Shown in pieces: positions 5,424-45,388 of a stretch of 64,000 bases of DNA. Within the stretch, counting starts at the first letter, position 1, and the number at the start of each line of letters is the position of its first letter. The translations under genes and the position numbers were made by a program. The DNA comes from an uncultured delta proteobacterium (GTDB lineage Bacteria > Desulfobacterota > BSN033 > UBA1163): positions 160,001 through 224,000 of the forward strand of contig CAWHBU010000003.1 in NCBI GenBank assembly GCA_963827685.1. Direction: 5' to 3'. Under the pieces are notes generated by a model that worked only from the letters and a program-made list of their open reading frames with translations, searched no databases and was not told the origin of the DNA.

Positions 5424-5458
5424 ATGCAAAATGGACAATGTAAGATTAGCAATTAGCG
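5424..5458 (+). repeat. Left arm of 7-mer array flanking the four-helix-bundle gene
   Basis: atgcaaa atggaca atgtaag attagca attagcg, ending exactly at the ATG. Confidence 0.75.
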
Positions 5459-5842
5459 ATGAATGAAAAAAGTCATCAACTCGCAGACCGGCTGCTTGAT
5501 TTTGCAGTAAGTGTGATCAAGATTACTGATGCGTTGTCTCAAACAGTTGCTGGAAGACACATCGGAGGCCAACTCATCAGAGCAGGGACGTCCGGCGGAT
5601 CAAATTATGAGGAAGCTTGTGGGGCTGAATCAAGATCAGACTTTACTCATAAAATGAGTATCGTCCTGAAAGAGCTAAAGGAAACGCGTTTCTGGCTTCG
5701 ATTGATCCAACGTACTGGAATGCTTGAACCTCAATACACCGAGCCCGTAATAACCGAATGCGAACACCTATGTGCGATCACGGCGAAAAGCATTATCACC
5801 GCGAAGAAGAAGAACGAGTCTAAACTGCCGAGGAAAAACTAA
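5459..5842 (+). CDS. Four helix bundle protein (23S rRNA-IVP / bAvd-like family)
   Basis: LADRLLDFA, QLIRAGTSGGSNYEEACGAESRSDFTHKMSIVLKELKETRFWLRLI is the family signature. Confidence 0.93.
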   Translation: MNEKSHQLADRLLDFAVSVIKITDALSQTVAGRHIGGQLIRAGTSGGSNYEEACGAESRSDFTHKMSIVLKELKETRFWLRLIQRTGMLEPQYTEPVITECEHLCAITAKSIITAKKKNESKLPRKN

Positions 5843-5886
5843 TGGTGAAGAATAGAGCTAAATGATTTTCGTTCTTAGTCCTTCAT

Positions 5887-5921
5887 CGTTAATTTTACAT
5901 TGCTAATTTTGCAATTTGCAG
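5887..5921 (+). repeat. Right (inverted) arm of 7-mer array flanking the four-helix-bundle gene
   Basis: cgttaat tttacat tgctaat tttgcaa tttgcag; its reverse complement matches the left-arm unit family. Confidence 0.75.
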
Positions 5922-5943
5922 TGTGGTTTCTAAGGGAGGCTGC

Positions 5944-6828
5944 ATGGAACTTTTCTTACAACTCTTTATCACAGGAATTCTGGTCGGTAGCATCTATGCC
6001 GTGGTCGCTCTTGGCTGGACCCTAATCTATAAATGCTCTGGCGTCCTCAACCTCGCCATGGGCGAACTCACCCTCATCGGGGCTTATGTCTGCCTCAGCT
6101 TCTACAATTGGGGAATTCCCTTTGTCTTAGCATTGCTTTTTACATTAGTCGTTGGATTTGCGTTGGGACTTTTGACTGAACACCTCTTTCTCCGACCTAT
6201 GGTAGGAGAACCTGTTTTGAGCGTGATTATGGTAACGGTGGGCCTCTCCTTCTTTTTTAAAGGTCTTGTGGAACTAATTTGGGGAACAGATACCGTTGTT
6301 TTTAATCCTATGGTATTTCCAATCGAACCCATTTTTATTGGAAAGATTGTAGTCGGTCAGGTTTATCTATGGGCTTTTGTTGCATCGATCGTCCTCCTCT
6401 TAGCTTTTGTCTCTTTCTTTAAATATACAAAATGGGGGTTATCGATGCAGGCCACGGCTGATGATGAAATGGCCGCTCTTTCATTGGGTGTGAACGCAAA
6501 GATTGTTTATGCCCTTGCCTGGGCTATTGCATTCATGGCCGCAGGAGTAGGTGGGACCTTATTGGGGAATATCAACGGGTTAAATATTTCGGTTGGCTAT
6601 TTAGGCTTATTAGTTCTCCCCGCTGTCGTTCTGGGAGGTCTCAACTCTGTCCCTGGAGCGATTGTAGGGGGTTTGGTGATAGGTGTTCTTCAGAACCTCG
6701 CAGATGGCTATCTGAGTCGCTATACCCCCGGTGGAGTCAAGGATGTATTTCCCTTTGTTATCATGGTGATCATCCTGCTCTTTAGGCCTTATGGACTCTG
6801 GGGGTGGGTTAGGATTGAAAGAGTCTAA
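5944..6828 (+). CDS. livH: Liv-type ABC permease (LivH-like)
   Basis: GSIYAVVALGWTLIY..GVLNLAMG, multi-TM, VVLGGLNSVPGAIVGG. ATG follows GGGAGG. Confidence 0.92.
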   Translation: MELFLQLFITGILVGSIYAVVALGWTLIYKCSGVLNLAMGELTLIGAYVCLSFYNWGIPFVLALLFTLVVGFALGLLTEHLFLRPMVGEPVLSVIMVTVGLSFFFKGLVELIWGTDTVVFNPMVFPIEPIFIGKIVVGQVYLWAFVASIVLLLAFVSFFKYTKWGLSMQATADDEMAALSLGVNAKIVYALAWAIAFMAAGVGGTLLGNINGLNISVGYLGLLVLPAVVLGGLNSVPGAIVGGLVIGVLQNLADGYLSRYTPGGVKDVFPFVIMVIILLFRPYGLWGWVRIERV

Positions 6829-6833
6829 CAAAA

Positions 6834-6916
6834 CATTGCAAATTGAAAAATTAGCAATGCAAATTCATCAATAAAAGAAAAGGAACTGCTAACTTTACAA
6901 TGTTAATTTTGCAGTG
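6834..6916 (+). repeat. Empty inverted 7-mer array (TGCAAA/TTAGCA family)
   Basis: cattgcaaa ttgaaaa attagca atgcaaa ... tgctaac tttacaa tgttaat tttgcagtg. Confidence 0.8.
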
Positions 6917-6933
6917 AGAATCGAGAGGTCAAA

Positions 6934-8028: not shown

Positions 8029-8039
8029 CGTTTCACATG

Positions 8040-8141
8040 CCTGCACGCCGAAGTGCCGGCCTTTCCGCACGCAGGCGTGTCCGACATCCGTGACCGTGAA
8101 AAAAATAGTTTACGGACACGAGACACGGAAACGGACAACGA
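8040..8141 (+). repeat. Palindromic insert (8040-8079) plus inverted CGTGAC/CACGGA array
   Basis: cctgcacgccgaagtg..ccgcacgcaggcgtg, then ccgtgaccgtg ... acggacacgagacacggaaacggaca. Confidence 0.65.
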
Positions 8142-8234
8142 AAGAAAGGGGTGATGCAAAGTCATTGGTTGGTGGGAGAACAAAATAGGGAGGCGCAGTT
8201 TCTTTATTCTTATTAAATTTACAGGAGGTAAAAA

Positions 8235-9490: not shown

Positions 9491-9500
9491 GGAGAAGAAA

Positions 9501-10328: not shown

Positions 10329-10330
10329 AA

Positions 10331-10422
10331 CCGTGACTCGTGATTCGTGTCCGTGGGTCGTAAGAATTTTGTTAAATAAAAGTCTAACAGGTTGCGGACA
10401 CGGAAAACGGACACGGTCACGT
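10331..10422 (+). repeat. Empty inverted CGTGAY/CACGGA array
   Basis: ccgtgactcgtgattcgtgtccgtgggtcgt ... gcggacacggaaaacggacacggtcacg. Confidence 0.75.
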
Positions 10423-10452
10423 TATTCTTTAAATAAGAAAAGGAGGTTTCCT

Positions 10453-11022
10453 ATGCAAAGACTCTTATTAATTCTTATAGCGATTGCATTTGCAATCGGG
10501 GGATTGACAGCCTGCAAACCTGGCCTCCTGCCGACAGATGAGGCCGGGAAACCAAAAGTGATATTGGAGCGGATCGAAGTAGTAAGTTCCTTCCCATGGA
10601 CCGATCTTCCCGCCCGTACTCCATTGGCTCTTGGCTTCGTGTTTAACATCAACAACCCGAGTGGTTATAATATCATGCTGGACAATATGAAATTCGCATT
10701 TTCCTTTGAAGTAACCCCTGATTATTACGTTGAAATAAACGTTCCCGTCTCCTATGATCAAACCTATTTTCCACCCAACACAACCAGTCAATATCGAATC
10801 GTCAGCATTATAGATTCAGCGGTGATCAACGGAAAGCTTGCAGTAACCCAAGGAGCTAAGCTCCAGCCCCTTGATTTGAAGCCAGCAGATCTAATCAAAA
10901 ACTGGTATTCCAAGATTGGGGACTTTGCCTTTGGTATCAAGGTAGTGGAAGGAATGGCAGTCTTTTCAAGTGAGAAGGGAGACCTATTCATTGCTTTTGA
11001 AGGAAAATTTCCAAGGAAATGA
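10453..11022 (+). CDS. Lipoprotein of unknown function (possibly LEA_2/WHy-like beta sandwich)
   Basis: AGGAGG SD, hydrophobic signal with lipobox LTAC, and FVFNINNPSGYNIMLDNMKFAF resembling the LEA_2 NPN motif. Confidence 0.7.
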   Translation: MQRLLLILIAIAFAIGGLTACKPGLLPTDEAGKPKVILERIEVVSSFPWTDLPARTPLALGFVFNINNPSGYNIMLDNMKFAFSFEVTPDYYVEINVPVSYDQTYFPPNTTSQYRIVSIIDSAVINGKLAVTQGAKLQPLDLKPADLIKNWYSKIGDFAFGIKVVEGMAVFSSEKGDLFIAFEGKFPRK

Positions 11023-11050
11023 CGAGACACAAATAATTCCTCACTTATAA

Positions 11051-11091
11051 TCCTCCCATCCCCCCTTTCAATGGAGGGGAAGATGGGAGGA
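11051..11091. repeat. C-rich/G-rich REP-like hairpin
   Basis: tcctcccatcccccctttcaatggaggggaagatgggagga. Confidence 0.6.
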
Positions 11092-11112
11092 TCCTCCCCC
11101 AGGAGATTCCCC

Positions 11113-12569: not shown

Positions 12570-12598
12570 GATGTCCAAAAAGAAAGGGGGAGGAATTT

Positions 12599-14580: not shown

Positions 14581-14586
14581 AAAGAA

Positions 14587-14682
14587 CATTGCAAAATGCA
14601 AAGTTAACATCGCAAAGTTATCACTGAAAGATTTTTTCTTTCCATTGCTAATGGCTAATTTTTCAATGTTAATTTTGCAATG
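14587..14682 (+). repeat. Empty inverted 7-mer array (TGCAAA family)
   Basis: cattgcaaa atgcaaa gttaaca tcgcaaa gttatca ... tgctaat ggctaat ttttcaa tgttaat tttgcaatg. Confidence 0.8.
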
Positions 14683-14702
14683 AGCTTTTAACAGGAGGCC
14701 TT

Positions 14703-15554
14703 ATGGAAATTAAGACGATCGGCGTCGTGGGAGCTGGACAGATGGGAAATGGAATTGCTCAGGTAGCCGCCTATTCTGGATTCCGGGTCATCATGAGTGA
14801 TATTGCCGATCCTTTCATTCAAAAAGGTCTAACGACCATTTCTAAGAATCTGGATCGAATGGTGGAAAAGGGAAAGATTGCCTCTCAGAAGAAAGAGGAG
14901 GTGATGGGAAAGATCAAAGGGACGACTAAAATTGGAGACATGGCGGATGCAGATTTTGTTGTCGAGGCCGCCACAGAGAACGAATCCCTCAAATTGAACC
15001 TGTTTAAAGAACTGGATCAGGTTTGTCGAAAAGAGATCATCCTCTCGAGCAATACTTCCTCCATCTCTATCACTAAGCTTGCCTCAGCAACCCAAAGACC
15101 GTCACAAGTCATCGGAATGCATTTCATGAACCCTGTCCCGGTGATGCAGCTGGTGGAGATCATCCGGGGCCTTCAAACCTCTCAGGAAACTTTTGGTACG
15201 GTTAAGTCCCTCGCCGAGCAGATAGGTAAAACCCCGGTTGAAGCGAATGACTTCCCGGGATTCATCTCCAATCGAGTCTTAATGCCCATGATCAACGAAG
15301 CAATTTATGCCCTCTTTGAAGGAGTGGGCACACCAGAGGCCATCGACACCGTCATGAGACTGGGAATGAATCATCCCATGGGGCCCTTGACATTGGCCGA
15401 CCTGATCGGCCTGGATACGTGTCTGGCTATTATGGAGGTCATCTATAAGGGTTTGGGGGATTCCAAGTATCGTCCCTGCCCTCTCCTCAAAAAATATGTC
15501 GAGGCAGGTTACCTAGGTAGGAAAACGGGAAGAGGGTTCTATACCTATAGTTAG
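14703..15554 (+). CDS. hbd: 3-hydroxybutyryl-CoA dehydrogenase
   Basis: [30 protein letters not shown] and GMNHPMGPL. Confidence 0.93.
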
Positions 15555-15555
15555 A

Positions 15556-15627
15556 AGTTAGGAGTTCGGAGTTCAGAGTTCGGAGATTCTAAAAATACTC
15601 CGAACTAGGAACTGAAAACTCCGAACT
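15556..15627 (+). repeat. Empty inverted 7-mer array (AGTTCGG/CCGAACT family)
   Basis: agttagg agttcgg agttcag agttcgg ... ccgaact aggaact gaaaact ccgaact. Confidence 0.85.
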
Positions 15628-21623: not shown

Positions 21624-21629
21624 TTCGGG

Positions 21630-21688
21630 GGTGGAAAGTAGAGAGTTGAAAGTGGTAAAAACCACATTCCACCTTCCGCTCTCCACCT
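21630..21688 (+). repeat. Empty inverted 7-mer array (GTGGAAA/TTCCACC family)
   Basis: gtggaaa gtagaga gttgaaa gtggtaa ... ttccacc ttccgct ctccacc. Confidence 0.7.
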
Positions 21689-21706
21689 GCAAAATAGGGT
21701 AAAAGG

Positions 21707-23528: not shown

Positions 23529-26084
23529 ATGGGAACTCAAATGATCAAACTGAAGATTGATGAAATCGAGATTGAGGTTGAGAAAGGCAAGACGATTCTC
23601 GAGGCCGCTCAATCTGCGGGCGTCCGCATTCCCTCTCTCTGCCACGACCGAAGGCTCATTCCCTTTGGCGCTTGCCGTCTCTGTGTCGTCCAGCAAGAAG
23701 GAAAATCTGAACTCGTGCCATCCTGTTTCACCCCTGCGAGAAACGGGATGGAGATTCTTACCCAATCTCCAAAGATTTCTGAATCGAGACGGCTGCAGCT
23801 CCAATTCATTCTGCTCAACCATCCGATGGTCTGTCCCCGCTGTGAAAAAGAGGGCGAATGTGACCTCCAGAATTTGATCTATGAATATGGGGTGGAAGAG
23901 ACACGCTATCCATGGGAGCCAATGATATCTCCTGCGGACGATCGATCTCTCCTCCTCCAGAGAGATTCCAATAAATGTATCCTCTGTGGCCGGTGCGCTC
24001 GCATCTGTGATGAGGTTCAGGGAATAGGAGAACTCTCTTTTACCCGAAGAGGAATCAAGACGGCCATCGATACGGACTTTCATCGCCCCATCCAATGTGA
24101 ATTCTGCGGCCAATGCATGGATACCTGCCCGGTGGGGGCTATTACCAGCGACCGTTTCGACTATACGGCCAAATCTTGGGAGTTGAAGGAGACGACAACC
24201 CCCTGCCCTTACTGCGGATGTGGATGCCTTCTCACTATGGGTTCGAAAGATGGAGAAGTAAAAAGGGTTTTCTCCGACCCTGGCAGGGGCCCAAGCGATG
24301 GAAATCTTTGCGTCAAGGGAAGGTTTGGTTGGGACTTCGTCGACCATCCTGAAAGGATCAAGACCCCTCTTCTAAGAGTCAACGGGGCATTCAAAGAGGC
24401 CTCGTGGGATGAGGTTCTCCAGTTTATAACCAGCAAGCTTGAAGAAATTAAGAGCCAGTATGGTCCCCAAGCGATTGCCGCTATCGCCTCCGGTCGATTG
24501 ACCAATGAGGAATACTATCTGTTTCATAAGTTATTCCGAGAGGCAGTCGGAACGGATCAAGTCGGTTACGGCGGTGGCAGCGCCTACAGGGGCTTGACAG
24601 AGGGTTTGGCAAAGACATTGGGTATGGCCGCCTCCACCAATTCGATCCAAGAGATTCGGAAAGCCGATTGCATTCTCGTGATTGGTGTTGACCCTGCGGC
24701 CACACACCCGATCATCAAGAATGAGATCCATTTGGCAATCCGGCGGAACAGGACTCAGTTGATTGTGCTCGGTTCCCATGATATTGACCTCACCCGAGCC
24801 ACACAGATTTCTCCCATGTTTCATCCCAGTATCACTCTCATCGATAAACCTGGGATGGAGGTCTCCTTGCTCAACGCCATGATTGGAACTATATTGAGGG
24901 AAGGCCTTGAGGATAAAGATTTCATCGAAGAGAAAACCCAAGGGATAGAAGAATTGAAAAAGAAGATGGCCGTCTCCCCCGCTTCCAAAGATGAGTGGCT
25001 GGGAATCCTTCCGGAGGCAAAGAAGGCAGAAATTGAAAAGGCAGCCAGAGCATTTGCAAAAGCTAAAAAAGCCATGATTCTGATTGGCTCCGGTCTTTGG
25101 TCCCATATTCCTCCAAAAGAGACCGCCATGGCCGCCTCCAACCTTGCTCTGATCACAGGCCATCTCGGGAAGGAGTCCTCCGGGATTCTTCTCCTTCTGG
25201 ATAAATGCAATGCCCAGGGGGCCATCGATATGGGGGACGGCGCAAAAGGAGGAGCATGGGGATTGAAAGACCTCATCCAAAGGGCAGAGGAAGGCAAGCT
25301 AAGGGCCGTTTATATCGTCGGGGAAAACCCGCTCGTCACTTATCCCGATACCGATCAACTGAAGAAGGCATTGGAAAAAGTTCCGTGCCTCATCGTCCAG
25401 GACCTCTTCTTGACGGAGACGGCAAAGATGGCCCACGTCATCCTTCCTGCGAGTGCTTTTGTGGAAAAGAGCGGAACGTATACCAATCTGGAACGAAGGG
25501 TTCAGAAGTTAAATCCTCTTCGTCCGCCCCGCCACCAGTCAAAATCAGATTTTGAGATCTTCTTGAGCCTGTTGCGGCTTTTCGAGTACCCTGTTCCGGG
25601 AGAAACGCCTGAGGCCGTCTTTGAAGAGATTTGCCGTCAGATCCCTCATTACCGAGGGATTCAGGATGGAAAGCAATGGCCGGATAACGCCTCTTACCTC
25701 TATGCTGACGGGTTTCCAAATGGAAAGGCGAAACTGATACCGGTTGGAAAAACACCGGGTCCTCCAATTCCAGAAGGTTATCCTTTCCAACTGATTCAGA
25801 GGCCTTCCCTTTTCCAATCGGGGTTTCTCAGTTCAAAGAGCGACGCTTTGAAAATGGTCTCTGAAAAGCCTACCCTGGAAATAAACATCGAGGATGCCCG
25901 AGCGCTCAAGATCGAAGAGGAAGAAGTCATCCAGGTCTCAGCCCATGGGGGACGTTCTTTCAGGATGAGAGCGAAACTTTCCTCAATGTCCTCTCCCGGG
26001 GTAATCACTGTTCCTTATCCCTGTCCCCTCGTTGATGATAGGGGTATCAGTTCCGTCAAAATCGAAAGGTTAAAAGCAATCTAA
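23529..26084 (+). CDS. NuoG/FdhA-like molybdopterin-oxidoreductase-fold Fe-S protein lacking the Mo/W-ligating Cys/Sec
   Basis: 2Fe-2S, HxxxCxxC, 2x4Fe-4S and CPYCGCGC..LCVKG. The FdhA segment NxDxCARxC/UH is replaced by DQVGYGGGSAY. Confidence 0.85.
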   Translation: MGTQMIKLKIDEIEIEVEKGKTILEAAQSAGVRIPSLCHDRRLIPFGACRLCVVQQEGKSELVPSCFTPARNGMEILTQSPKISESRRLQLQFILLNHPMVCPRCEKEGECDLQNLIYEYGVEETRYPWEPMISPADDRSLLLQRDSNKCILCGRCARICDEVQGIGELSFTRRGIKTAIDTDFHRPIQCEFCGQCMDTCPVGAITSDRFDYTAKSWELKETTTPCPYCGCGCLLTMGSKDGEVKRVFSDPGRGPSDGNLCVKGRFGWDFVDHPERIKTPLLRVNGAFKEASWDEVLQFITSKLEEIKSQYGPQAIAAIASGRLTNEEYYLFHKLFREAVGTDQVGYGGGSAYRGLTEGLAKTLGMAASTNSIQEIRKADCILVIGVDPAATHPIIKNEIHLAIRRNRTQLIVLGSHDIDLTRATQISPMFHPSITLIDKPGMEVSLLNAMIGTILREGLEDKDFIEEKTQGIEELKKKMAVSPASKDEWLGILPEAKKAEIEKAARAFAKAKKAMILIGSGLWSHIPPKETAMAASNLALITGHLGKESSGILLLLDKCNAQGAIDMGDGAKGGAWGLKDLIQRAEEGKLRAVYIVGENPLVTYPDTDQLKKALEKVPCLIVQDLFLTETAKMAHVILPASAFVEKSGTYTNLERRVQKLNPLRPPRHQSKSDFEIFLSLLRLFEYPVPGETPEAVFEEICRQIPHYRGIQDGKQWPDNASYLYADGFPNGKAKLIPVGKTPGPPIPEGYPFQLIQRPSLFQSGFLSSKSDALKMVSEKPTLEINIEDARALKIEEEEVIQVSAHGGRSFRMRAKLSSMSSPGVITVPYPCPLVDDRGISSVKIERLKAI

Positions 26085-26147
26085 GTGATCCTTCTCTCCT
26101 CTCTTGCCAAAGAAGGGAGAGAGGATTCTAAGAAAGGGGGAAATTGA

Positions 26148-26939
26148 ATGAACATTATCGTGTGTGTCAAGAGGGTCCCAGAAACAGCGGATGCGGACGT
26201 CATCATCGACAAATCAGGGAAAGACATTGAAAAGAGCGGATTGGTCTTCGATCTCAATGAGTGGGACAATTATGCCATTGAGGAAGCGATTCTGCTGAAG
26301 GAAAAAATGGGCGGAACCGTGACGGTAATCTCCATGGGAGGGGAAGAATCGAATGAATCCCTGCGGAAATGTCTGGCCATGGGCGCCGATGATGCCGTGC
26401 GGTTGACCGATCCTGCCTTCGCGGGATCGGATGGATTTGCTACGGCGAGGGTGTTGTCAGAGGCAGTCCGAAAAATTCCTCATGACCTTGTCTTCACAGG
26501 CGTACAGGCCGAAGATGATGGGTTTGGACAAGTGGGAGTTGCCTTGGCCGAAATCTTAGGGGTTCCTCATGTCTCTCTCGTCAACTCTCTCGAAGTCCAG
26601 GATAAGAAGCTGAAGGCCCACCGAGAACTGGAAGGGGGATTAGAGGAGGTGGTTGAAGTCGGCCTTCCCGCTGTCCTGACGATTCAAACTGGAATCAATC
26701 AACCCCGCTATGTCTCGATCATGGGTATTCGAAAGGTGGCTAAAAAAGAGATTAAGTCTTTAGGTGTCTCGGATCTCAATCTGAAGGCGGAAGAGGTTGG
26801 CCTTTCCGGCTCGCATATTAAGTTGGAAAAGATCTTTCTTCCTCCGGTGGGTGAGGGAGCACAGATGTTGCAGGGAAAACCGGAAGAGATAGCATCCAAG
26901 GTTTTCAATATTCTGAAGGACAAAGGAGGGCTCACCTAA
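26148..26939 (+). CDS. etfB: Electron transfer flavoprotein beta subunit
   Basis: IIVCVKRVP, LAMGAD and INQPRYVS. Confidence 0.93.
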   Translation: MNIIVCVKRVPETADADVIIDKSGKDIEKSGLVFDLNEWDNYAIEEAILLKEKMGGTVTVISMGGEESNESLRKCLAMGADDAVRLTDPAFAGSDGFATARVLSEAVRKIPHDLVFTGVQAEDDGFGQVGVALAEILGVPHVSLVNSLEVQDKKLKAHRELEGGLEEVVEVGLPAVLTIQTGINQPRYVSIMGIRKVAKKEIKSLGVSDLNLKAEEVGLSGSHIKLEKIFLPPVGEGAQMLQGKPEEIASKVFNILKDKGGLT

Positions 26940-27922: not shown

Positions 27923-28033
27923 GAGTTCGCCTGCCTGCCGGTAGGCAGGGAGTTGGGAGTTCGGAGTCAAAACCTAACCACTACTAATTCTTCTAACGAT
28001 TTTCTCCGAACTCCGAACTAATCACTCCGAACT
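27917..28033 (+). repeat. Inverted AGTTCGG/CCGAACT array interrupted by the 20-nt palindrome
   Basis: agttaag agttcg[insert]g agttggg agttcgg ... ccgaact ccgaact aatcact ccgaact. Confidence 0.85.
27930..27949. mobile_element. 20-nt palindromic micro-insertion CCTGCCTGCCGGTAGGCAGG, copy 1
   Basis: Identical to 36126-36145. Removal restores the AGTTCGG unit. Confidence 0.75.
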
Positions 28034-28048
28034 GGGATAGGGTTAGGA

Positions 28049-29203: not shown

Positions 29204-29207
29204 ATAG

Positions 29208-29287
29208 GGTGACTCGTGACGGGTGTTGGTGAATGTTAAAACCTCAAAAAGGGTTTCGAATCACGACTCACGAATCACGATTCACGG
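29208..29287 (+). repeat. Inverted CGTGAY/TCACGAA array
   Basis: gtgactcgtgacgggtgttggtgaat ... tcacgac tcacgaa tcacgat tcacgg. Confidence 0.8.
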
Positions 29288-29303
29288 AAAAGAAAGTACT
29301 ATT

Positions 29304-31562
29304 ATGAAGAGCGAAGAGATGAGAGAAGTCATTCCCGAAATCCTAGTCATCGGGGCCGGTATTGCAGGCATGCAAGCTGCTCTGGATATCGCCGACAAGG
29401 GGTTTAAGGTCCATTTAGTGGAGAAGGACACTTGCGTTGGGGGCCATATGGCCCAATTGGATAAGACCTTCCCCACCCTTGATTGCTCTGCCTGTATCAG
29501 CACGCCTAAAATGGTTGATACGGCGAATCATCCTAACATCAATCTTCTCACCTACTCAGAGATCGTTCGGGTTGAAGGAAAAGCTGGACATTTCAAGGTC
29601 ACGGTCAGAAAGAAACCCCGTTTTGTCGATGTAACCAAATGTACGGGTTGTGGTGACTGCGCCGCTCAATGCCCAGTCACCCTCCCCAACGAATTTGACA
29701 TGGGGTTAGGAAACAGGAAAGCAATCTATATCTCTTTCCCCCAGGCCGTTCCACTTAAATATACGATGGATCGCCGGGGGACTTCCCCCTGTACGGCTAC
29801 CTGCCCCCTCCACTGTAATGCCCAGGGCTATGTGGCCCTCATCTCCCAAGGCAAGTTTAAAGAAGCCCTTGAACTGGTGAGGGAGAAACTCCCCTTCCCG
29901 GGAATATTAGCCTATGCCTGTGCTCACCCCTGTGAAAGGGAGTGTAAGCGAATTGAAGAGGATCGTCCTATCTCCATCTGTCATCTCAAAAGGTTCCTCG
30001 TCGATCATGTTGAAGAACCTGAGTTTAAGTTTACGCCTCCCGAAGAAAAGGGAAAAAAGATAGCCATCGTGGGCGCAGGTCCGTCGGGACTCACCGCCGC
30101 ATATGATCTGAGAAAAATGGGTTACGGTGTCACCCTTTTTGAATCCAAAAATGAGTTAGGCGGTCTTCTCATCCACGGTTTCCCCTCCTATCGTCTTCCG
30201 AGGCAGGTGGTGGAAAAGGATCTCTCGGTGATCGATAAGATGGGAATAGAGGTCAAATGCAACACCCAGGTGGGAAAGGACATCTCCCCGGAGACACTCA
30301 CTCAATCCTATGATGCGATCTTTATCGCTGGTGGTATCACTGGAGTAGAATCCATCACGCGTGCCTTTAAGGGCCTAAAGAAAACGCGAAGAGGGACGAT
30401 TCAGGTCAATCCCATCTCCTTGGAAACCGCCGTGAAAGGGATCTTTGTGGGTGGAGATATGGTGACTGGTCCTGGGACCATTGTCGAATCCATGGCCCAG
30501 GGAAGGAAGGCTGCTGTTTCAATTGATCGATACCTTCGCGGAGAAGATCTGCTTCAAGGAAGGGAGTCCGAAGGAACACAAATCTCACCCTTAAGAAGCC
30601 TTCTTCCCTATTCGAAGAGAATGGAGCGAGAAGTCCTGCCCGATATGGTAAAACCACTCGTCGCCAGCATCACCGCAGAGGAGGCGATGGAGGAGGCAAA
30701 GCGTTGTCTCAATTGCGCAGGATGTTCGGATTGTGGAGAGTGTGCCAAGGCCTGTCAGCCCAAAGCCATCAATTATGGAATGAAAGAAGAGATCGTCGAA
30801 CTTCATGTGGGATCCATCATCCTCGCAACCGGTTTCGATCCCTTCAACCCGAAACTGAAACCCGAATTTGGATATGGCAAGTATCCCAACGTCCTTCATG
30901 GTCTTGAAATAGAGAGGCTCTGTTCTGCCTCTGGTCCAACCCAAGGTGAAATTATCATCCAGGGAAAGAAGCCCAAAGAGGTGATCTTTATTCACTGCGT
31001 TGGGTCGAGGGATAAGGCAGCGGGCAACGAATACTGCTCAAGGGTCTGCTGTATGTATACGGCTAAGCAAGCCCATCTCCTCAGGGATAAGATTCCGGAT
31101 GCCAATATCACCGTCCTCTATATGGATGTGAGGGCCTTTGGAAAAGGATTTGAAGAATTTTACGAGAGGGTCCAAAAAGAGAGGATCGTCTACAGAAGGG
31201 GAAATCCCTCTGAGGTTTATCGAAGAAACGGGAAACTGGTGGTCAGGGGCGAGGATACCCTCTTAGGAGAACCTTTTGAATTAGAAGCAGACCTGGTCGT
31301 CCTGGCCTCAGGACTCGTCCCCCGAAAGGAGGATAATCTTCTAAAAGACCTTCTCAAGTTGGAGAAATCCTCTGACCAATTTTATGCAGAGGCTCCAGGC
31401 CTCGATCCAATTGTAACGGGTGTGGATGGGATCTTCCTGGCAGGTTGTTGCCAGGGGCCCAAAGATATTCCGGACACAGTGGCACAGGCCAGTGGTGCAG
31501 CTTCAATGGCCTGCGCCTTTGTAGCGAAAGGAAGAGAAACAAAAGTTAAGAGTTCAGAGTGA
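29304..31562 (+). CDS. hdrA: HdrA-like flavoprotein with a truncated GltD-like insertion (HdrL-type), lacking HdrA N- and C-terminal Fe-S domains
   Basis: GAGIAG, DKTFPTLDCSAC, a ferredoxin split by a Fer4_20/GAGPSG insert, CVGSRD..CSRVCC and GCCQGPKDI. Confidence 0.88.
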   Translation: MKSEEMREVIPEILVIGAGIAGMQAALDIADKGFKVHLVEKDTCVGGHMAQLDKTFPTLDCSACISTPKMVDTANHPNINLLTYSEIVRVEGKAGHFKVTVRKKPRFVDVTKCTGCGDCAAQCPVTLPNEFDMGLGNRKAIYISFPQAVPLKYTMDRRGTSPCTATCPLHCNAQGYVALISQGKFKEALELVREKLPFPGILAYACAHPCERECKRIEEDRPISICHLKRFLVDHVEEPEFKFTPPEEKGKKIAIVGAGPSGLTAAYDLRKMGYGVTLFESKNELGGLLIHGFPSYRLPRQVVEKDLSVIDKMGIEVKCNTQVGKDISPETLTQSYDAIFIAGGITGVESITRAFKGLKKTRRGTIQVNPISLETAVKGIFVGGDMVTGPGTIVESMAQGRKAAVSIDRYLRGEDLLQGRESEGTQISPLRSLLPYSKRMEREVLPDMVKPLVASITAEEAMEEAKRCLNCAGCSDCGECAKACQPKAINYGMKEEIVELHVGSIILATGFDPFNPKLKPEFGYGKYPNVLHGLEIERLCSASGPTQGEIIIQGKKPKEVIFIHCVGSRDKAAGNEYCSRVCCMYTAKQAHLLRDKIPDANITVLYMDVRAFGKGFEEFYERVQKERIVYRRGNPSEVYRRNGKLVVRGEDTLLGEPFELEADLVVLASGLVPRKEDNLLKDLLKLEKSSDQFYAEAPGLDPIVTGVDGIFLAGCCQGPKDIPDTVAQASGAASMACAFVAKGRETKVKSSE

Positions 31563-31644
31563 TGAGTTAAGAGTTTAGAGTTATGAATGATGAGTTATAA
31601 ATCAATTATTTCACGAGTCACGAATCACGAGGCACGAATCACGG
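31544..31644 (+). repeat. Chimeric array: AGTTAAG/AGTTATG left arm plus TCACGAA right arm
   Basis: agttaag agttcag agtgatg agttaag agtttag agttatg ... tcacgag tcacgaa tcacgag gcacgaa tcacgg. The arms are not complementary. Confidence 0.8.
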
Positions 31645-31651
31645 AGAAAAG

Positions 31652-33586: not shown

Positions 33587-33592
33587 TTGCGC

Positions 33593-33667
33593 ATTTCGGA
33601 TTGCGGATTGCGGAATTTAGAGATTGATAACTGACCATTGTTGATTGACCATTTTGCATTGAGTTTT
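33593..33667 (+). repeat. Chimeric array: ATTGCGG left arm plus TTGACCA/TTTTGCA right arm
   Basis: atttcgg attgcgg attgcgg ... ttgataa ctgacca ttgttga ttgacca ttttgca ttgagtt. Confidence 0.7.
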
Positions 33668-33671: not shown

Positions 33672-34196
33672 ATGGAAAAGGGTCTCATTCAGATCTATAC
33701 CGGGAATGGAAAAGGTAAGACCACTGCTGCTTTGGGGCTTGCCCTGAGAGCGGTCGGCCATGGATTGAAGGTCTTGGTCATCCAATTCATGAAAGGAAAT
33801 ATCGACTACGGTGAATTGGAATCTTCTAAAAAGCTCTCTCCCTACTTGACGATCAAACAGATGGGCAGGGAGACTTTTGTCTCAAAAACGAACCCAGATC
33901 CCATTGACGTAAGAATGGCTCAGGATGGATTTGTTTTGGCGAAAAAAGCGATTGCCGATGAAGACTATGACATCATCATCCTCGACGAAATCAATGTGGC
34001 CATCGATTACGGATTGATCCCTCTCTCTGATCTCCTTCACGTCCTTGAAACCAAGCCCAGCGGAGTTGAACTCATTCTAACCGGAAGAAACGCCCGACCT
34101 GAAATATTGGAAAAAGCTGATTTGGTCACGGAGATGGTAGAACAAAAACACTACTATAAGAACGGAGTCTCAGCTCGCAAAGGCTTCGAAATTTAA
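33672..34196 (+). CDS. cobO: Cob(I)alamin adenosyltransferase (CobO/BtuR)
   Basis: YTGNGKGKTTAALG, QFMKG, ILDEI, ELILTGR and DLVTEM. Confidence 0.94.
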   Translation: MEKGLIQIYTGNGKGKTTAALGLALRAVGHGLKVLVIQFMKGNIDYGELESSKKLSPYLTIKQMGRETFVSKTNPDPIDVRMAQDGFVLAKKAIADEDYDIIILDEINVAIDYGLIPLSDLLHVLETKPSGVELILTGRNARPEILEKADLVTEMVEQKHYYKNGVSARKGFEI

Positions 34197-34243
34197 CCCC
34201 CCTTCATCCCCCCTTAACCTAAGGGGGGAATAGAGGGGGGTTA
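34194..34243. repeat. C-rich/G-rich REP-like hairpin
   Basis: taacccccc ttcat cccccctta acc taagggggg aataga ggggggtta. Related to 43134-43175. Confidence 0.75.
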
Positions 34244-34277
34244 CAAATCACGGACACGAGACTAGGGGGCTTACTGA

Positions 34278-35951: not shown

Positions 35952-36017
35952 GGACATAGCGTCCGATCGCCAAAGTACTTATACAGCAGGCAGGCGTCGA
36001 GGATAGAACATACATGG

Positions 36018-36166
36018 AAGCACCAAATCCCAAGCACCAAATCTCAAATAAATCCCAATTACCAAAATTCGAAAAAAATCTATTTGGTTATTTGAAATTG
36101 GAATTTGGAGCTTATTTGGGATTTGCCTGCCTGCCGGTAGGCAGGGAATTTGTGATTTGGGATTTT
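36018..36166 (+). repeat. Inverted CCAAAT/ATTTGG array interrupted by the 20-nt palindrome
   Basis: caccaaa tcccaag caccaaa tctcaaa ... atttggg atttg[insert]ga atttgtg atttggg. Confidence 0.85.
36126..36145. mobile_element. 20-nt palindromic micro-insertion CCTGCCTGCCGGTAGGCAGG, copy 2
   Basis: Identical to 27930-27949. Removal restores the ATTTGGA unit. Confidence 0.75.
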
Positions 36167-36209
36167 AGAGAGCCTACTCTTTGCGGCCTACTGAAGGCGA
36201 GGAGCGATA

Positions 36210-36617
36210 ATGAGTCTCAAGAGAAAAGTTCGCATTCTGATAGGGAAACCCGGCTTGGATGGACATGATCGGGGAGCAAAAGTGATCGCAAGGGGGTTCA
36301 GGGACGCCGGTTTTGAGGTGATCTATACAGGACTCCATCAGACGCCCGAGCAGATCGTGTCGGCTGCCATCCAGGAAGATGTGGATGCAATCGGATTATC
36401 CAGCCTGGCCGGGGCCCATGACTATCTTTTCCCGAGGGTGATTGAACTTCTCAAAGAAAAAAAGGCAGACGATATTATCGTTTTTGGAGGGGGAATTGTT
36501 CCTGAAGAGGACATCGCTACCCTCACCCAATGTGGGGTAAAAGCCATCTTCACTCCCGGGACCTCTATTGAAGAGGCCGTTAAGTGGGTTCGTAAAAACG
36601 TAAAGCCGCGTAAATAA
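36210..36617 (+). CDS. icmB: Acyl-CoA mutase cobalamin-binding small subunit
   Basis: [10 protein letters not shown] (DxHxxG), GLSSLAGAH and GGGIVP. Confidence 0.85.
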
Positions 36618-36620
36618 AAA

Positions 36621-36817
36621 GCATAGGGCATGGAGCATAGAACTTAGTGAATGACGAATTGCCAAATCCCAAGCACCAAATTCCAAATAATTCCAAATTT
36701 CCAAATTCAAAATTCCAAACGTTTTGGTATTTGAAAATTGGAGTTTGAGATTTGTTTGGGATTTGGAATTTGTGACTTGGAATTTTAAACACTATCCTCT
36801 CTGCGCTATGCGCTATA
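36621..36817 (+). repeat. Nested inverted arrays: outer GCATAGG/CTATGCG, inner CCAAATT/ATTTGG
   Basis: gcatagg gcatgga gcataga [ccaaatcccaagcaccaaattccaaa ... tttgggatttggaatttgtgacttgg] ctgcg ctatgcg ctatac. Confidence 0.8.
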
Positions 36818-36853
36818 CCTATTTATTTAAAGGGAGGGTGGCGAAGGCTTTAG

Positions 36854-36936
36854 GTTCATAGTTCATAGTTCTAGTTCATCGTTCATTGTTTATCGTCCAT
36901 CGTTCATAGTCCATAGTTAAAAGTCCAAAGTTCAAT
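36854..36936 (+). repeat. Single-arm tandem array of about 12 GTTCATA-like 7-mers
   Basis: gttcata gttcata gttcta gttcatc gttcatt gtttatc gtccatc gttcata gtccata gttaaaa gtccaaa gttcaat. Confidence 0.85.
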
Positions 36937-38325: not shown

Positions 38326-38515
38326 ACCCTGTACCTATCCCTGAGGCAAGGATTTGAAATCAAAATTTTCACCTAACTTTTGAACTTCAATCTGAGTCAA
38401 AAGAGCGTATGATGGTACAGGGTAAACCCATAGCCAAAGATATTTGTAATTTCTCTAACCTTTCCGTGATGTAAGGCACGGCTTTAATGGTACAGGGTAA
38501 AGGAGGAAAACCTCT

Positions 38516-39109: not shown

Positions 39110-39111
39110 AA

Positions 39112-39169
39112 AGTTCGGAGTAATGTAGTTCGGTGTTCGGAGCAGATTTGAAACTCCGAACTCTGAACT
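39112..39169 (+). repeat. Empty inverted AGTTCGG/CCGAACT array
   Basis: agttcgg agtaatgt agttcgg tgttcgg ag ... ctccgaact ctgaact. Confidence 0.8.
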
Positions 39170-39186
39170 GGATTTGGAGGAAAGCT

Positions 39187-40356: not shown

Positions 40357-40460
40357 ATTTATGAGTTGAGAATTATGAGTTATGAATTGCGAATGAGCAG
40401 CTATGAATTTAAGTCCTTAGTTTTTAACTCTTAATTCTTAACTCTCACCTGTTAATTCAT
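40357..40460 (+). repeat. Inverted AGTTATG/TAACTCT array
   Basis: atttatg agttgag aattatg agttatg aattgcg ... taactct taattct taactct. Confidence 0.75.
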
Positions 40461-40501
40461 CTATTGCCTCTTTTTGCTAACTTTGGTATTTTGTTGAAAC
40501 G

Positions 40502-41473: not shown

Positions 41474-41545
41474 AACATTTTTCATGCTCTACAATGAGAT
41501 GAAATAGGAATCCAATTTTACGGATCACGAATCACGGACACGAGA
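41447..41545 (+). repeat. Chimeric array: TGCAAAA left arm (inside meaB 3' end) plus CACGAAT right arm
   Basis: cattgcaaaatgaaaaataaaaaatgaaa ... ttacgga tcacgaa tcacgga cacgag. Confidence 0.65.
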
Positions 41546-41561
41546 GGAGGGAGAAACCTTC

Positions 41562-43136
41562 ATGAGATCTATCGATGCGATTCGAAAGGAGCTCGAAAAA
41601 AGAAGACGTGAAGCATCCTGGGGTGGGGGTCAAGAAAAAATCGAAAAACAACATCGCGGCGGAAAACTGACTGCCCGCGAACGCATCGATCTTCTCCTTG
41701 ACGCCGGGACCTTTGTTGAGCTGGACCGCTTTGTCACCCATCATTGCACCGATTTTGGGATGGAGAAGAAGAAGTTTTTTGGGGACGGCGTGGTAACGGG
41801 CTATGGAAAGATCGAAGGCCGTCTCGCATTCGTTTTTTCTCAAGATTTTACCGTATTCGGTGGGGCCTTGGGAATGGCTTTTGCTCAAAAGATTTGCAAA
41901 GTGATGGACCTCGCCATGAAGACAAGAGCACCACTGATCGGCCTAAACGACTCCGGAGGGGCGAGGATTCAAGAGGGCGTCGAGAGCTTGGCGGGTTATG
42001 CCTACATCTTTTTAAGGAATGTGCTTGCCTCCGGCGTCATCCCGCAAATCTCTGCCATCATGGGGCCCTGTGCAGGGGGGGCGGTTTACTCCCCTGCCAT
42101 GACCGATTTCATTCTAATGACCAAAAAGACAAGTTATATGCATATCACTGGTCCTGATGTCATCCGGGCAGCCCAGGGCAAAACAGAGGCTCCGGATGGA
42201 AAGCCTATTACCTCCGAACTCTTGGGTGGAGCAAAGGTCCATATGGAAAAAAGTGGGGTGGCCCATTTTGCAGGCGAGAATGACGAGGATACGATTCGCT
42301 TCATCAAAGAGTTGCTCCGATTCTTCCCGCAGAATAACCGTGACAAGCCGCCGATCATCGAATGTGCAGATGATCCCAATCGAATGGATGAATCGTTAAA
42401 GACCGCCGTCCCGGAAGATTCCAAAAAAGCATACGACATGAAAAAAGTGATCTTGCCCACTGTGGATGATGGCTATTTCCTTGAAGTCCAGAAAGATTGG
42501 GCCAAAAACATCATCGTCGGCTTTGCCCGCTATAACGGAATGCCCGTAGGGATCGTCGCCAATCAACCCAATTGGCTGGCCGGATCTCTTGACCCGGATT
42601 CTTCAGTGAAGGCGGGCCGATTTGTTCGTTTTTGTGACTGCTTCAACATTCCCATTGTCACCTTCGTCGATGTTCCGGGTTTCCTCCCTGGAATAGATAT
42701 GGAGGAAAGAGGAATCATTCGACACGGATCTAAACTCCTTTACGCATTTTGTGAAGCGACTGTTCCAAAGATTACGATCATTACCCGTAAAGGTTACGGG
42801 GGAGCCTATGATGTGATGTCGAGTAAACATATCCGGGGAGATATCAATTACTGTTACCCCACTGCCGAAATCGCCGTCATGGGTGCAGACGGGGCGGTGA
42901 ATATCATCTTCCGAAACGACATCAAAGAGGCGAAAGATCCGAAGGAGACGCGCCACCGGCTGGTCGCCGAATATCAAGAGAAATTTGCCAGTCCTTATAA
43001 GGCAGCAGAATTAGGGTATGTGGATGAGATCATCGAACCCGAGGAAACCCGTCCCAAAATCATCCAGGCTCTGGATATTTTGAAGACCAAAGTCGATACC
43101 AATCCCTGGCGGAAACACGGAAACATACCGCTGTAA
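41562..43136 (+). CDS. Acyl-CoA carboxyltransferase (propionyl-CoA carboxylase beta / methylmalonyl-CoA decarboxylase alpha)
   Basis: [31 protein letters not shown] and RKHGNIPL. Confidence 0.93.
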
Positions 43137-43175
43137 CCCCCCTATCCCCCCTTTACTAAAGGGGGGTTGTGGGGA
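43134..43175. repeat. C-rich/G-rich REP-like hairpin
   Basis: taacccccctatcccccctttactaaaggggggttgtgggga. Confidence 0.7.
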
Positions 43176-43192
43176 TTTCGATGGAGCAAAGC

Positions 43193-44848
43193 ATGCCCAA
43201 GAACATTCGAGATGAATTTGAACGATGGGAAAAAACGACTCTTCAGAAAGCCATCTCAAAATCACCCGAACGAGAACCTTCTTTCAAAACTACTTCCCAT
43301 ATTGAATTAAAACGACTCTATACTCCCCTGGATGTCGCTGATTCGGACACCTGCGGTGGATTGGGGTTTCCCGGAGAGTTCCCTTTCACGCGAGGAGTCC
43401 AGCCGACCATGCATCGGGGGCGTCTCTGGACCATGCGCCAGTATGCAGGGTTTGCTACCCCCGAGGAGACGAATAAGCGATACAAATATCTCTTGGAACA
43501 TGGACAAACCGGGTTAAGCGTTGCCTTCGACCTTCCCACGCAGATCGGCTACGATTCCGACCACCCTTTATCCGACGGCGAAGTTGGGAAGGTCGGTGTC
43601 GCGATCGATACCCTGAAAGACATGGAGATTCTTTTTGATGGCATCCCCTTGGACAAAGTTTCCACGTCCATGACGATCAACTCCACAGCGGCCATTCTTC
43701 TCACGATGTATATGGCCGTGGCAGAAAAACAGGGGGTTAAAAGCGAAGTCCTTCAGGGGACGATCCAGAATGATATTTTGAAAGAATATGCAGCAAGAGG
43801 AACTTATATCTATCCACCCCTCGAATCGATGCGCATCGTCACTGATATCTTTGCATTTTGTAAAGACCGTCTCCCCCGATGGAATACCATCAGCATCAGC
43901 GGCTATCACATGCGTGAGGCAGGGTGCACGGCTGTCCAGGAAGTGGCTTTTACTCTGGCCGATGGCATGGCTTATGTGGAGGCAGCGATTCGGGCAGGTC
44001 TTGATGTGGATTCCTTCGCCTCCCGGCTCGCCTTCTTCTTCTGCTGCCATAACACCTTCATCGAAGAGATCGCAAAATTCAGGGCAGCCCGAAGGCTCTG
44101 GGCAAAAATCATGAAGGGACGCTTTAAAGCAAAAAGGGACGAGTCCTGCATGCTGCGGTTTCATACTCAGACGGCCGGTTGTTCCCTCACCGCTCAACAA
44201 CCCGACAACAACGTCGTGCGAGTTGCCTTCCAGGCTCTGGCTGCCGTGTTAGGAGGAACGCAGTCGCTTCACTCCAATTCCAGAGACGAAGCCTATTCCC
44301 TACCTACAGAAGACTCTGTCCGGCTTGCATTGAGAACCCAGCAGCTCATTGCCTATGAAAGCGGTGTCGCCGATATGATCGATCCCCTTGGAGGTTCTTA
44401 TGCCGTGGAGGCCCTTACGGATGAGATAGAAAAAAAGGCAATGGAATATATCGAAAAGATCGAAGCCATGGGAGGAGCTATCAAAGCCATCGAATCAGGT
44501 TATATTCAGGGAGAGATTGGTGAAAGCGCTTATCAATATCAGAAGGAAATCGAAACCAAAAAGCGGATCATTGTTGGATTGAACCAGTTTCAGATGGAAG
44601 AAGAACCTCTCAGGGATATCCTTCGTATCAAACCTGAGGTGGAACAATACCAGAAGGAAAGACTGGCCAGGGTTAAAAAAGAAAGAAACAACACGAAAGC
44701 GAAGGAGACCTTAGCTGTCCTAAAGAAGGCAGCCCAGGGAACGGACAATGTAGTGCCTCCCATTTTAGAGGCGGTCAAGGCTTATGCCACCCTGGGAGAA
44801 ATCTCAGACACCTTGAGAGAAGTATTCGGGGAGTATAGAGAAAGATGA
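43193..44848 (+). CDS. mcmA: Methylmalonyl-CoA mutase large subunit
   Basis: WTMRQYAGF (Tyr), [11 protein letters not shown] (Arg) and [10 protein letters not shown]. Confidence 0.9.
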
Positions 44849-44849
44849 A

Positions 44850-44911
44850 AGTTCGGAGTTCGGAGCATTTGTGAGTAAAACTCCGAACTCATGACTCCTT
44901 ACTCCGAACTC
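44850..44911 (+). repeat. Empty inverted AGTTCGG/CCGAACT array
   Basis: agttcgg agttcgg ag ... ctccgaact catgact ccttact ccgaact. Confidence 0.8.
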
Positions 44912-44927
44912 TCGACGGAGGAGAGAA

Positions 44928-45323
44928 ATGGCTCGGAAGATTCGAGTGCTCATTGCGAAGCCAGGGTTGGACGGACACGACAGGGGTGCAAAGGTGATTG
45001 CACGAGCCTTGAGAGATGCAGGGATGGAAGTGATCTATACCGGAATACGACAGACCCCTGAGCAGATTGCGAACGCTGCCATTCAGGAAGACGTCGATAT
45101 CGTAGGCCTCTCCAGTCTCTCCGGTGCCCACAACAATCTCTTCCCAAAGGTTGTTCAGATTCTCAAAGAAAAAAAGGCGGAAGATATCCTCGTTTTTGGA
45201 GGAGGAATCATCCCGGTCGATGACATTCCAGGACTGAAAGAAGCTGGAATTCGGGAGATCTTTCAGCCCGGTGCCTCCACAGAAGAAATTATTAAATATA
45301 TCAAAGAAAATGTGGAACGATGA
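44928..45323 (+). CDS. mcmB: Methylmalonyl-CoA mutase cobalamin-binding subunit
   Basis: [10 protein letters not shown] and GLSSLSGAH. Confidence 0.9.
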
Positions 45324-45388
45324 TTTAGGGATTTAGGGATTTTGAATTCCTTAATTCCTTAATTCCTCAATTCCTTAATTCCTTAATT
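45322..45388 (+). repeat. Inverted 8-mer array (GATTTAGG/AATTCCTT)
   Basis: gatttagg gatttagg gattttg | aattcctt aattcctt aattcctc aattcctt aattcctt. Confidence 0.85.

Follow-up and report, generated by a model that had tools for sequence, protein, structure and literature searches.

The closest described relative of the element reported here is the intervening sequence in helix 45 of the 23S rRNA of Coxiella burnetii, which carries the S23p open reading frame (ORF), of the same protein family, in a 28-bp stem (PMC4990558). According to that report, three tandem GACAGAT units precede the start codon, their copy number varies between strains, RNase III cleavage at the first of the three was demonstrated experimentally, and the ORF is decaying and probably untranslated. 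The same text places the first description of this four-helix-bundle family in 23S rRNA intervening sequences, while PMC10053308 relates the family to Avd, the accessory protein of diversity-generating retroelements (DGR); both points were already made in the initial annotation of the DNA studied here. That DNA, hereafter the window, is a stretch of 64,000 nucleotides from an uncultured delta proteobacterium (contig CAWHBU010000003.1, or C3, positions 160001-224000), whose genome (G000), of the type of sulfate reducers, has 5.23 Mb, 47% GC, 94.5% completeness and 8% contamination. One operon junction of the window (5424-5921) contains a four-helix-bundle gene between inverted arrays of imperfect 7-mers, a filled cassette, and others contain hairpins of similar build without a gene. 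We lean, with some reserve, towards regarding filled and empty hairpins as two states of one family of insertable, heritable cassettes made up of gene plus arms.

The short tandemly repeated repetitive (STRR) sequences of cyanobacteria are one of the known cases of intergenic heptamer tandem repeats. For Xanthomonas, 70-75 convergent pairs of the heptamer GGGAATC able to form stem-loops are reported (PMC4692102, which also covers Nostoc), a preprint describes a regulatory effect of the Nostoc heptamers (bioRxiv 10.1101/2022.06.06.494920), and the TAACTGA repeats of the Beggiatoaceae are direct, not inverted (PMC4679880). As in the Xanthomonas and Nostoc work, the heptamers of the present genome are over-represented in spacers, lie close to where the upstream ORF ends, for the most part in gaps that separate co-directional genes, and vary in length and sequence between close relatives; the convergent 7-mer pairs of the Xanthomonas type, located in spacers near the 3' end of the upstream gene, occur here too. 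One or few units are described for Xanthomonas, Nostoc and the Beggiatoaceae, whereas the intergenic arrays here fall into 104 canonical units, the largest class containing 20 arrays, and in the accessible text of those reports no link of the repeats to a four-helix-bundle gene was found.

The filled cassette and its paralogues

The filled cassette lies on the plus strand between an AMP-binding ligase gene and livH, and not in a 23S rRNA helix. Its 5' arm (5424-5458), about five imperfect 7-mers of the TGCAAAA/TTAGCAA type with the core CAAT, extends from 7 nt past the ligase stop codon to the start codon of the enclosed gene (5459-5842), for which no obvious Shine-Dalgarno sequence was seen. 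The 127 amino acid product is a member of the 23S rRNA intervening-sequence protein/TIGR02436 family (PF05635, 58.8 bits against a cut-off of 33.8; TIGR02436, 82.1 bits against 24), and by sequence match it resembles PDB entry 2rld (E-value=1.3e-14), which has five chains. The 3' arm (5883-5921) is the reverse-complement array; the two match at 17/21 positions, and the second ends 12 nt before the Shine-Dalgarno sequence of livH, which starts at ATG 5944. When 5415-5925 is folded, these arms pair in the minimum-energy as well as in the centroid structure. Profile scores and fold thus bear out the initial view that TGCAAA-family arms, five units each, enclose a four-helix-bundle gene at 5424-5921. 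Its orthologues in relatives, which were retrieved with the ligase and are metagenome-assembled Thermodesulfobacteriota ('Deltaproteobacteria') genomes, are 67-80% identical. The ratio of nonsynonymous to synonymous substitution (dN/dS) is 0.05-0.07, with synonymous sites saturated between most pairs; for the orthologues in L004 and L015, dS is 0.30 and dN 0.014. The protein is under purifying selection.

Eighteen PF05635 matches were found in the genome, and by eye 17 of them have inverted periodic arms, each with a different unit. When arms were defined by a best reverse-complement match of at least 16/21 between the 130 nt upstream and the 130 nt downstream of a gene, they were present at 14/18 PF05635 genes and at 27 of 1226 control genes of 270-520 nt; when periodicity was demanded on both sides as well, the counts became 10/18 and 4/1226. 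Under this strict definition arrays are enriched around four-helix-bundle genes genome-wide (Fisher p 1.8e-17). Each of 20 relatives, from five genera and three families, has 2-17 PF05635 matches, with 17 of 27 scoreable loci passing, and in a draw across the phylum of 40 other genomes, one per family, the family was present in 25 (26/41 with the source genome) and 24/28 loci passed. Because the heptamer hairpin is the standard packaging of PF05635 genes, gene and arms may be treated as one heritable, insertable cassette.

Two features are shared with the Coxiella intervening sequence: a gene of this family in the loop of a long stem closed by terminal inverted repeats, and tandem heptamers directly upstream of the ORF start. 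The differences lie in the location, between protein genes of an operon and not in rRNA; in the 18 paralogues, each with its own unit; in the selection acting on the protein, whereas the Coxiella ORF is decaying; and in the dozens of gene-less hairpins of like build.

Heptamer arrays across the genome

Tandem Repeats Finder returned 724 period-7 rows for the genome against 377 for the second commonest period, and an autocorrelation scan gave 455 arrays of period 7, compared with 29-140 when the period was 5, 6 or 8-11. By crude gene calls, 353 of the 455 are situated in the non-coding 17% of the genome. Contig C3 contains 43 strict arrays, and a Markov-2 simulation of it contained none. A reverse-complement partner (at least 12/14, within 250 nt) was present for 148 of 357 intergenic 7- or 8-mer arrays compared to 20 in a complement-only control. 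The spacers concerned consist almost wholly of two complementary arrays of 3-6 imperfect units of 7, sometimes 8, nt. Using z-scores derived from dinucleotide-preserving shuffles, the median fold z was -4.8 for array spacers (n=45) and -0.8 for array-free spacers (n=60), that is, pairing goes beyond that of shuffled sequences.

Genes were called as greedy longest ORFs, so that start positions are approximate. The main stem was measured in 85 co-directional spacers that carry paired arrays. It has about 28 pairs, and its median distance is 3 nt from the stop codon (within 5 nt in 52/85) and 12 nt from the called start downstream, in agreement with the initial description of a stem placed between an upstream stop and a downstream Shine-Dalgarno sequence. 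Strong hairpins at gene ends could be intrinsic terminators or attenuators between operon genes. This is very improbable, since at least four T within 12 nt follow the stem in only 3/85, the structures are located inside evident operons and directly before a Shine-Dalgarno sequence, and large loops on stems of about 28 bp do not resemble terminators; intrinsic terminators were rejected on the T-run count.

The hairpins resemble repetitive extragenic palindromes (REP), REPIN-RAYT systems and miniature inverted-repeat transposable elements in being many, short and intergenic, in their presence or absence between relatives, and in that gene-less members outnumber gene-bearing ones. Unlike REP and REPIN-RAYT elements they have no arm sequence conserved family-wide, and their gene, which lies inside the hairpin, does not encode a Y1 transposase. 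Y1 transposases were considered as mobilisers, but among the 25 Y1_Tnp matches in the genome (for example C4:636157-636519) none of six inspected had heptamer arms. Eighteen of these matches are identical 163 amino acid copies, which suggests an active IS200/IS605 element, and GTAGCGTCGGCATT...GCCGAC repeats lie on either side of a 174 amino acid RAYT-like gene at C6:428228. The early statement that the hairpins are not ordinary REPs or terminators therefore holds on three counts, namely the rarity of T-runs, the number of unit classes and the Y1 genes without heptamer arms.

The 5' arm contains more G than C in 56/65 hairpins (binomial p 2e-9), the G-rich array pointing 5' to 3' towards the centre on both strands. 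An inverted repeat reads alike on both strands, and the rule is for that reason silent on the transcribed strand. The exceptions are nearly all hairpins of the CCAAAT type, which form a conserved-sequence family of opposite arm polarity; the proposal of a constant architecture with differing units is correct for many units and does not extend to this family. Such a polarity would result if repeats were added to the two 3' ends of a break, and the protein family includes Avd (PMC10053308). Arrays written by a reverse transcriptase with an Avd-like protein, as in a DGR relative, or by telomere-like addition at breaks would account for both facts. We consider this hardly credible: the sole reverse transcriptase of the genome is of the group II intron maturase type (RVT_1 + GIIM) and is adjacent to none of the 18 PF05635 genes, and the reverse-transcriptase link was rejected because this single enzyme is encoded elsewhere in the genome. 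Avd itself, as described in the same source, has a homologous, PF05635-like four-helix-bundle fold; the present genes differ in having neither an adjacent reverse transcriptase nor a template/variable repeat pair.

Loop lengths are bimodal. Of 78 strict array pairs, 51 have loops shorter than 100 nt, and 7/10 pairs with loops of 390-600 nt hold a PF05635 gene. Loops above 600 nt were examined for other cargo, which was rejected: they arise where arrays of one unit stand at two junctions in a row, with ordinary genes in between (FlpD, transaldolase, POR, LptA/LptC among others; eight of nine ORFs belong to ordinary families and one has no match).

Arrays were present in 224/2533 co-directional, 34/565 convergent and 21/587 divergent spacers. 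The excess of co-directional over divergent spacers, and stems that abut both stop codon and Shine-Dalgarno sequence, would be expected if the empty hairpins were host regulatory structures, such as intercistronic mRNA stabilisers, RNase III sites or REP-like translational-coupling devices. They would then arise through replication slippage of 7-mers and be kept by selection, with four-helix-bundle genes and small elements inserting into them, the empty hairpins being targets. The existence of orphan unit families fits this explanation, as do the inverted GGGAATC pairs of Xanthomonas, which in the accessible part of PMC4692102 lie near ORF 3' ends with no gene inside. So do the other residents of hairpins, namely a Y1 transposase gene (G001, G061), a 20-nt palindrome and a 150-nt insert (L001). 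We regard it as possible but not probable, on account of the orthologous junctions and the behaviour of the units described below.

Turnover at junctions and the cassette reading

The ligase/livH junction was compared across 13 genomes of the genus. An orthologous four-helix-bundle gene in TGCAAA-type arms is present in five (G000, G002, G007, G008 and G010), an empty hairpin of the same unit family in one (G011), an empty hairpin built from the 8-mer GGNTCAAG in five (G004, G005, G006, G009 and G012), and a Y1 transposase gene in TGCAAA-family arms in two (G001, Pfam 40.6 bits; G061, by eye). The Y1 genes, within CAAT-type arms, are IS200-like and have small flanking hairpins of their own (L198 998-1489 from G001; L197 from G061). 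More distantly related genomes (L002, L005, L006, L007 and L019) have a spacer of 15-40 nt without arms, and L031, from the Desulfobacteraceae, has a different paralogue, 40% identical, at this position. In L001 (7940-8200), CAAT-type arms surround a 150-nt palindromic insert (GCGAGGAGCGTAGCGACGAAGCAATC...) and no gene. The livH/livM junction, which is empty in the window and has orthologous empty hairpins in G002, G005, G009 and G010, contains a 73%-identical four-helix-bundle gene in L001.

At the junction of the large methylmalonyl-CoA mutase subunit and the small B12 subunit (MCM-large/B12-small), four unit families occur among nine genus members, the genus-mates having TGCGGAW, ATTGCAA or GCATAGG arms. 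Each of the 14 relatives' spacers folded gave a single long hairpin (z -1.1 to -4.1), and the nested hairpin at 36618-36835 of the window recurs in G004 at a different junction. Orthologous junctions thus exist in filled, empty and absent states, a polymorphism foreseen in the initial annotation, and are also found re-armed or loaded with a different gene.

Several of these observations disagree with host regulatory structures. The MCM-large and B12-small genes overlap without any spacer in other families of the class (L136-L140), and because the same gene pairs do so the hairpin is an addition and not a conserved regulator. Units are swapped over the whole spacer between genomes whose flanking proteins are 89-95% identical, which point mutation under stabilising selection would not do. 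The unit is, in addition, conserved with the protein clade across contexts.

That conservation is seen in the paralogues as well as in the relatives. Three pairs of paralogues more than 60% identical share units (GCAGAAG/GCAGTAG, 78%; TGCGGAA, 64%; GTGATTC/GTGATGG, 63%), whereas the remaining pairs among the 18 are at most 44% identical and their units differ. Among 45 cassettes from 21 genomes, pairs from different contexts with at least 60% protein identity share arms (at least 12/14) in 67% of 33 cases, and below 60% identity arms are shared in 6-10% (949 pairs). The orthologues of the window protein all keep period-7 arms with a CAAT core despite synonymous saturation.

Units that stay the same within a protein clade, in spite of saturated dS and differing loops, also suggest trans-acting proteins, each a candidate binder of its own heptamer. 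The empty hairpins would then be a regulon and the arms of the gene would serve autoregulation, with mobility secondary. Between three and six units make up each arm, and homopentamers are reported for relatives of the protein (Lin et al. 2006, cited in PMC4990558). Matches to GTCAGAA number six in G010, which has the cognate gene, against 1, 0 and 0 in G000, G002 and G011; for GTACAGA, again with its cognate gene in G010, the counts are six against 0, 0 and 0. Each of the abundant empty families AGTTCGG, TGCGGAA and TCACGAA has a cognate gene in G000. These counts are small, however, the genomes are kin, and orphan arrays as well as genes without empties exist; as the principal explanation, binding in trans appears unlikely to us.

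For the reading of filled and empty hairpins as states of one cassette family, the architecture of the arms is also relevant. A direct copy of the upstream array follows the gene in 26/72 cassettes compared with 7/72 in a reversed-sequence control, and it usually precedes the inverted copy, so that arm, gene, arm, loop and arm' follow one another. A scheme in three steps can be proposed. In the RNA, by analogy, the long perfect-register-tolerant stem would fold the insert out of the polycistronic mRNA, and the stop codon before the insert and the ribosome-binding site behind it would thereby stay adjacent; the element could therefore sit between translationally coupled genes with little harm. 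By comparison with the Coxiella intervening sequence, the heptamer stem is probably a substrate of RNase III, for which the genome has one gene. In the DNA, the order of arms suggests that the arrays may be the substrate for gain and loss: through recombination or slippage between direct copies the gene would be lost while an empty hairpin remained intact, and in the reverse direction a gene would be loaded into an array of the same unit. Thirdly, unit conservation past synonymous saturation and the small cross-genome counts point to a pentameric protein that may recognise its own unit.

A bolder version of this scheme, which we put forward as speculative and doubtful, has each four-helix-bundle pentamer reading its own 7-nt word. 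The arrays would then be both operators and integration sites, and the gene plus one array would move between arrays of the same word by direct-copy recombination. If true, the empty hairpins would be landing pads, relics and a trans-controlled regulon at once. This would amount to a mobile element of a new kind, using a simple protein-to-repeat code that can be re-programmed, and it would supply the missing protein partner for the heptamer repeats of cyanobacteria and Xanthomonas.

A number of results weigh against the cassette reading. Protein identity and arm similarity are hardly correlated overall (Spearman 0.066, a value reached in 50/500 permutations); only the class of at least 60% identity stands out, and the sharing of units among related proteins could be plain co-inheritance of arms. 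Some PF05635 genes have no empty copies of their own unit, and orphan empty units of the GGTTCAAG and GGGATTT types have no cognate gene in the G000 assembly; both kinds of exception speak against a strict dependence. Two junctions of the window, described below, hold arrays that do not pair (z +1.6 and z -0.4). A recent gain or loss whose breakpoints could be read was not found, the filled G007/G008 and empty G011 alleles being too diverged, and synonymous sites are saturated between filled and empty alleles. The cassette model leaves the G-rich-arm-first rule unexplained. Sense spacers fold better than antisense ones (58 vs 32) with more G-U pairs, but this is uninformative on RNA-level selection because array-free spacers share the bias (43 vs 17). 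Finally, the relatives are kin, and counts across them are not independent. Of the mobile cassette first proposed, association, polymorphism and pairing are upheld, while the derivation of the empties from filled forms stays a candidate reading.

Hairpins of the window and their significance

By profile scan, the plus-strand genes at 3.5-47.5 kb form a catabolic cluster that includes an AMP-forming ligase, liv-type transporter genes, thiolase, hydroxyacyl-CoA and acyl-CoA dehydrogenases, electron transfer flavoprotein, Hdr/Nuo-like redox proteins and two methylmalonyl-CoA mutase sets. Array spacers were located by printing each spacer longer than 20 nt. Between 5.4 and 45.4 kb they comprise one filled cassette, 12 empty paired hairpins and five junctions with unpaired arrays, all on the plus strand; on the cassette reading, which we favour to a modest degree, roughly twelve of the heptamer-zipper hairpins that populate the genome would lie in the window. 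In the minus-strand liv operons at 55-64 kb no period-7 array was found, the junctions there being overlapping or 4-61 nt long, just as the initial annotation had it. Of the sites which it listed, those at 10331, 14587, 15556, 21630, 27917, 29208, 36018, 36621, 40357, 44850 and 45322 are paired hairpins, that at 6834 has weakly pairing arms, and that at 39112 consists of two direct units only.

Two empty hairpins belong to the TGCAAA family. The one at the livH/livM junction (6829-6933) is A/U-rich and weakly paired (z -1.1), the long hairpin of the 6834 site being present in the centroid structure and absent from the minimum-energy one. The other (14585-14690; z -2.8) shares the 15-nt stretch AATGTTAATTTTGCA with the 3' arm of the first at 6888-6916. 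In the spacer after livM (8029-8140), as read from the sequence, a GC-rich palindrome is followed by paired GTGTCCG/ACGGACA arrays, and this hairpin at about 8075-8140 is additional to the sites annotated earlier. The hairpin at 10329-10421 has GTGAYTC/GGACACG arms (z -5.5; 0/200 shuffles as stable). AGTTCGG arms are found at 15556-15627 (z -4.6), at 27923-28040 (AGTTCGG-type; z -2.7), whose 5' array has a 20-nt palindrome (27930-27949) nested within it, and at the MCM-large/B12-small junction (44850-44910; z -3.8). GTGGAAA-type arms occur at 21627-21689 (z -3.9) and TTATGAG/TTAACTC arms at 40363-40445 (z -2.4). By direct reading, GTGACTC/TCACGAA arms lie at 29204-29290, upstream of a gene with ATG at 29305. 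The hairpin with 8-mer arms GATTTAGG/AATTCCTT at 45324-45388 (z -3.3) is replaced by other hairpins in genus-mates.

Two hairpins contain sequence of the CCAAAT type. That at 36014-36175, by direct reading, has the C-rich arm first and a nested 20-nt palindrome (36126-36145); its inner hairpin is nearly identical to one in G004. The second (36618-36835; z -4.2) is a nested composite with outer GCATAGG/GCGCTAT arms and an inner CCAAAT-type hairpin, and about 150 of its 218 positions are invariant in the G004 spacer at a different junction.

Among the unpaired arrays, that at 36854-36934 is direct, (GTTCATA) x 11.7, the longest in the window and just upstream of the next Shine-Dalgarno sequence; it adjoins the ribosome-binding site of a thiolase-like gene. 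The 23-nt spacer at 39110-39132 has two direct AGTTCGG units without an inverted partner and is not a hairpin. By sequence reading and fold, a single TCACGRA array at 41519-41545 stands right before a Shine-Dalgarno sequence and has no partner. The two non-pairing spacers weighed above contain mutually non-complementary tandem arrays, (GAGTTAW)n + (TCACGAR)n at 31563-31645 (z +1.6) and (ATTGCGG)4 with a second, non-complementary array at 33587-33662 (z -0.4). The arrays without complement at 31562, 33586 and 41520 are likewise additional to the earlier sites.

A second class of junction hairpin consists of C-runs and G-runs (CCCCCC...GGGGGG) and is present in the window at 26084-26148, 34196-34245, 43136-43169 and 45816-45862; in genus-mates (L127, L128, L133; G006) such hairpins alternate with heptamer hairpins at a given junction. 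The 20-nt palindrome noted above, CCTGCCTRCCGGYAGGCAGG, has 87 copies in the genome, among them 27930-27949 and 36126-36145. It is positioned in the middle of hairpins, whether heptamer arrays (12/87 by score), CCCC...GGGG hairpins or GTCGGCAAT...ATTGCCGAC palindromes, occurs in arrays of relatives also (L130), and looks like a tiny element that targets hairpins. A 112 amino acid ORF at 45862-46200 without Pfam or NCBIfam match is multi-copy, with DNA copies 98%, 94% and 90% identical at C2:1132888, C3:581711 and C3:725533, and is present in genus-mates.

Some arrays have no stop codons in certain frames, and longest-ORF calling therefore stretches or invents ORFs over them. Spurious calls include the start of 10333-11022, the start at 29223 and the ORF 36014-36268; the ORFs that seem to cover 29208 and 36018 are of this kind, the true starts being 29305 and 36210. 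Among public sequencing runs no RNA run containing this DNA was listed. Contigs from four public metagenome runs are short, mostly less than 95% alike and broken at arrays. The joints 5464/5801, 5917/6934 and 6856/14643 have short sides linking arms of one unit family, and nothing was drawn from them. At the AGTTCGG arrays (15552-15589) public contigs stop or diverge with many loose ends, for which reason the arrays are taken to be assembly breakpoints. In practical terms, then, arrays of this kind break metagenome assemblies and create spurious ORFs (10333, 29223, 36014).

The rRNA intervening-sequence cassette (PMC4990558) and the inverted heptamer pairs of Xanthomonas (PMC4692102) are already in print. 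What is added here is the density of empty hairpins, the rule that the unit goes with the protein clade, the direct-copy architecture, the polarity rule and the series of junctions within one genus. In the literature covered, to which subscription journals did not belong, no report was found that places four-helix-bundle genes in heptamer hairpins outside rRNA or ties empty arrays to them, and none of the literature examined gives an agreed role for tandem heptamers in bacterial spacers.

The role of the S23p or intervening-sequence protein, a puzzle since the early 1990s, and the crowding of spacers with heptamers become a single testable question. The genus provides a natural series for it, in which one junction is filled, empty, re-armed or loaded with another gene, together with 18 paralogues that differ in their units. 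Should the stems prove to be sites of RNase III, the catabolic operons of this organism would have to be read as processed and not as simple polycistronic transcripts.

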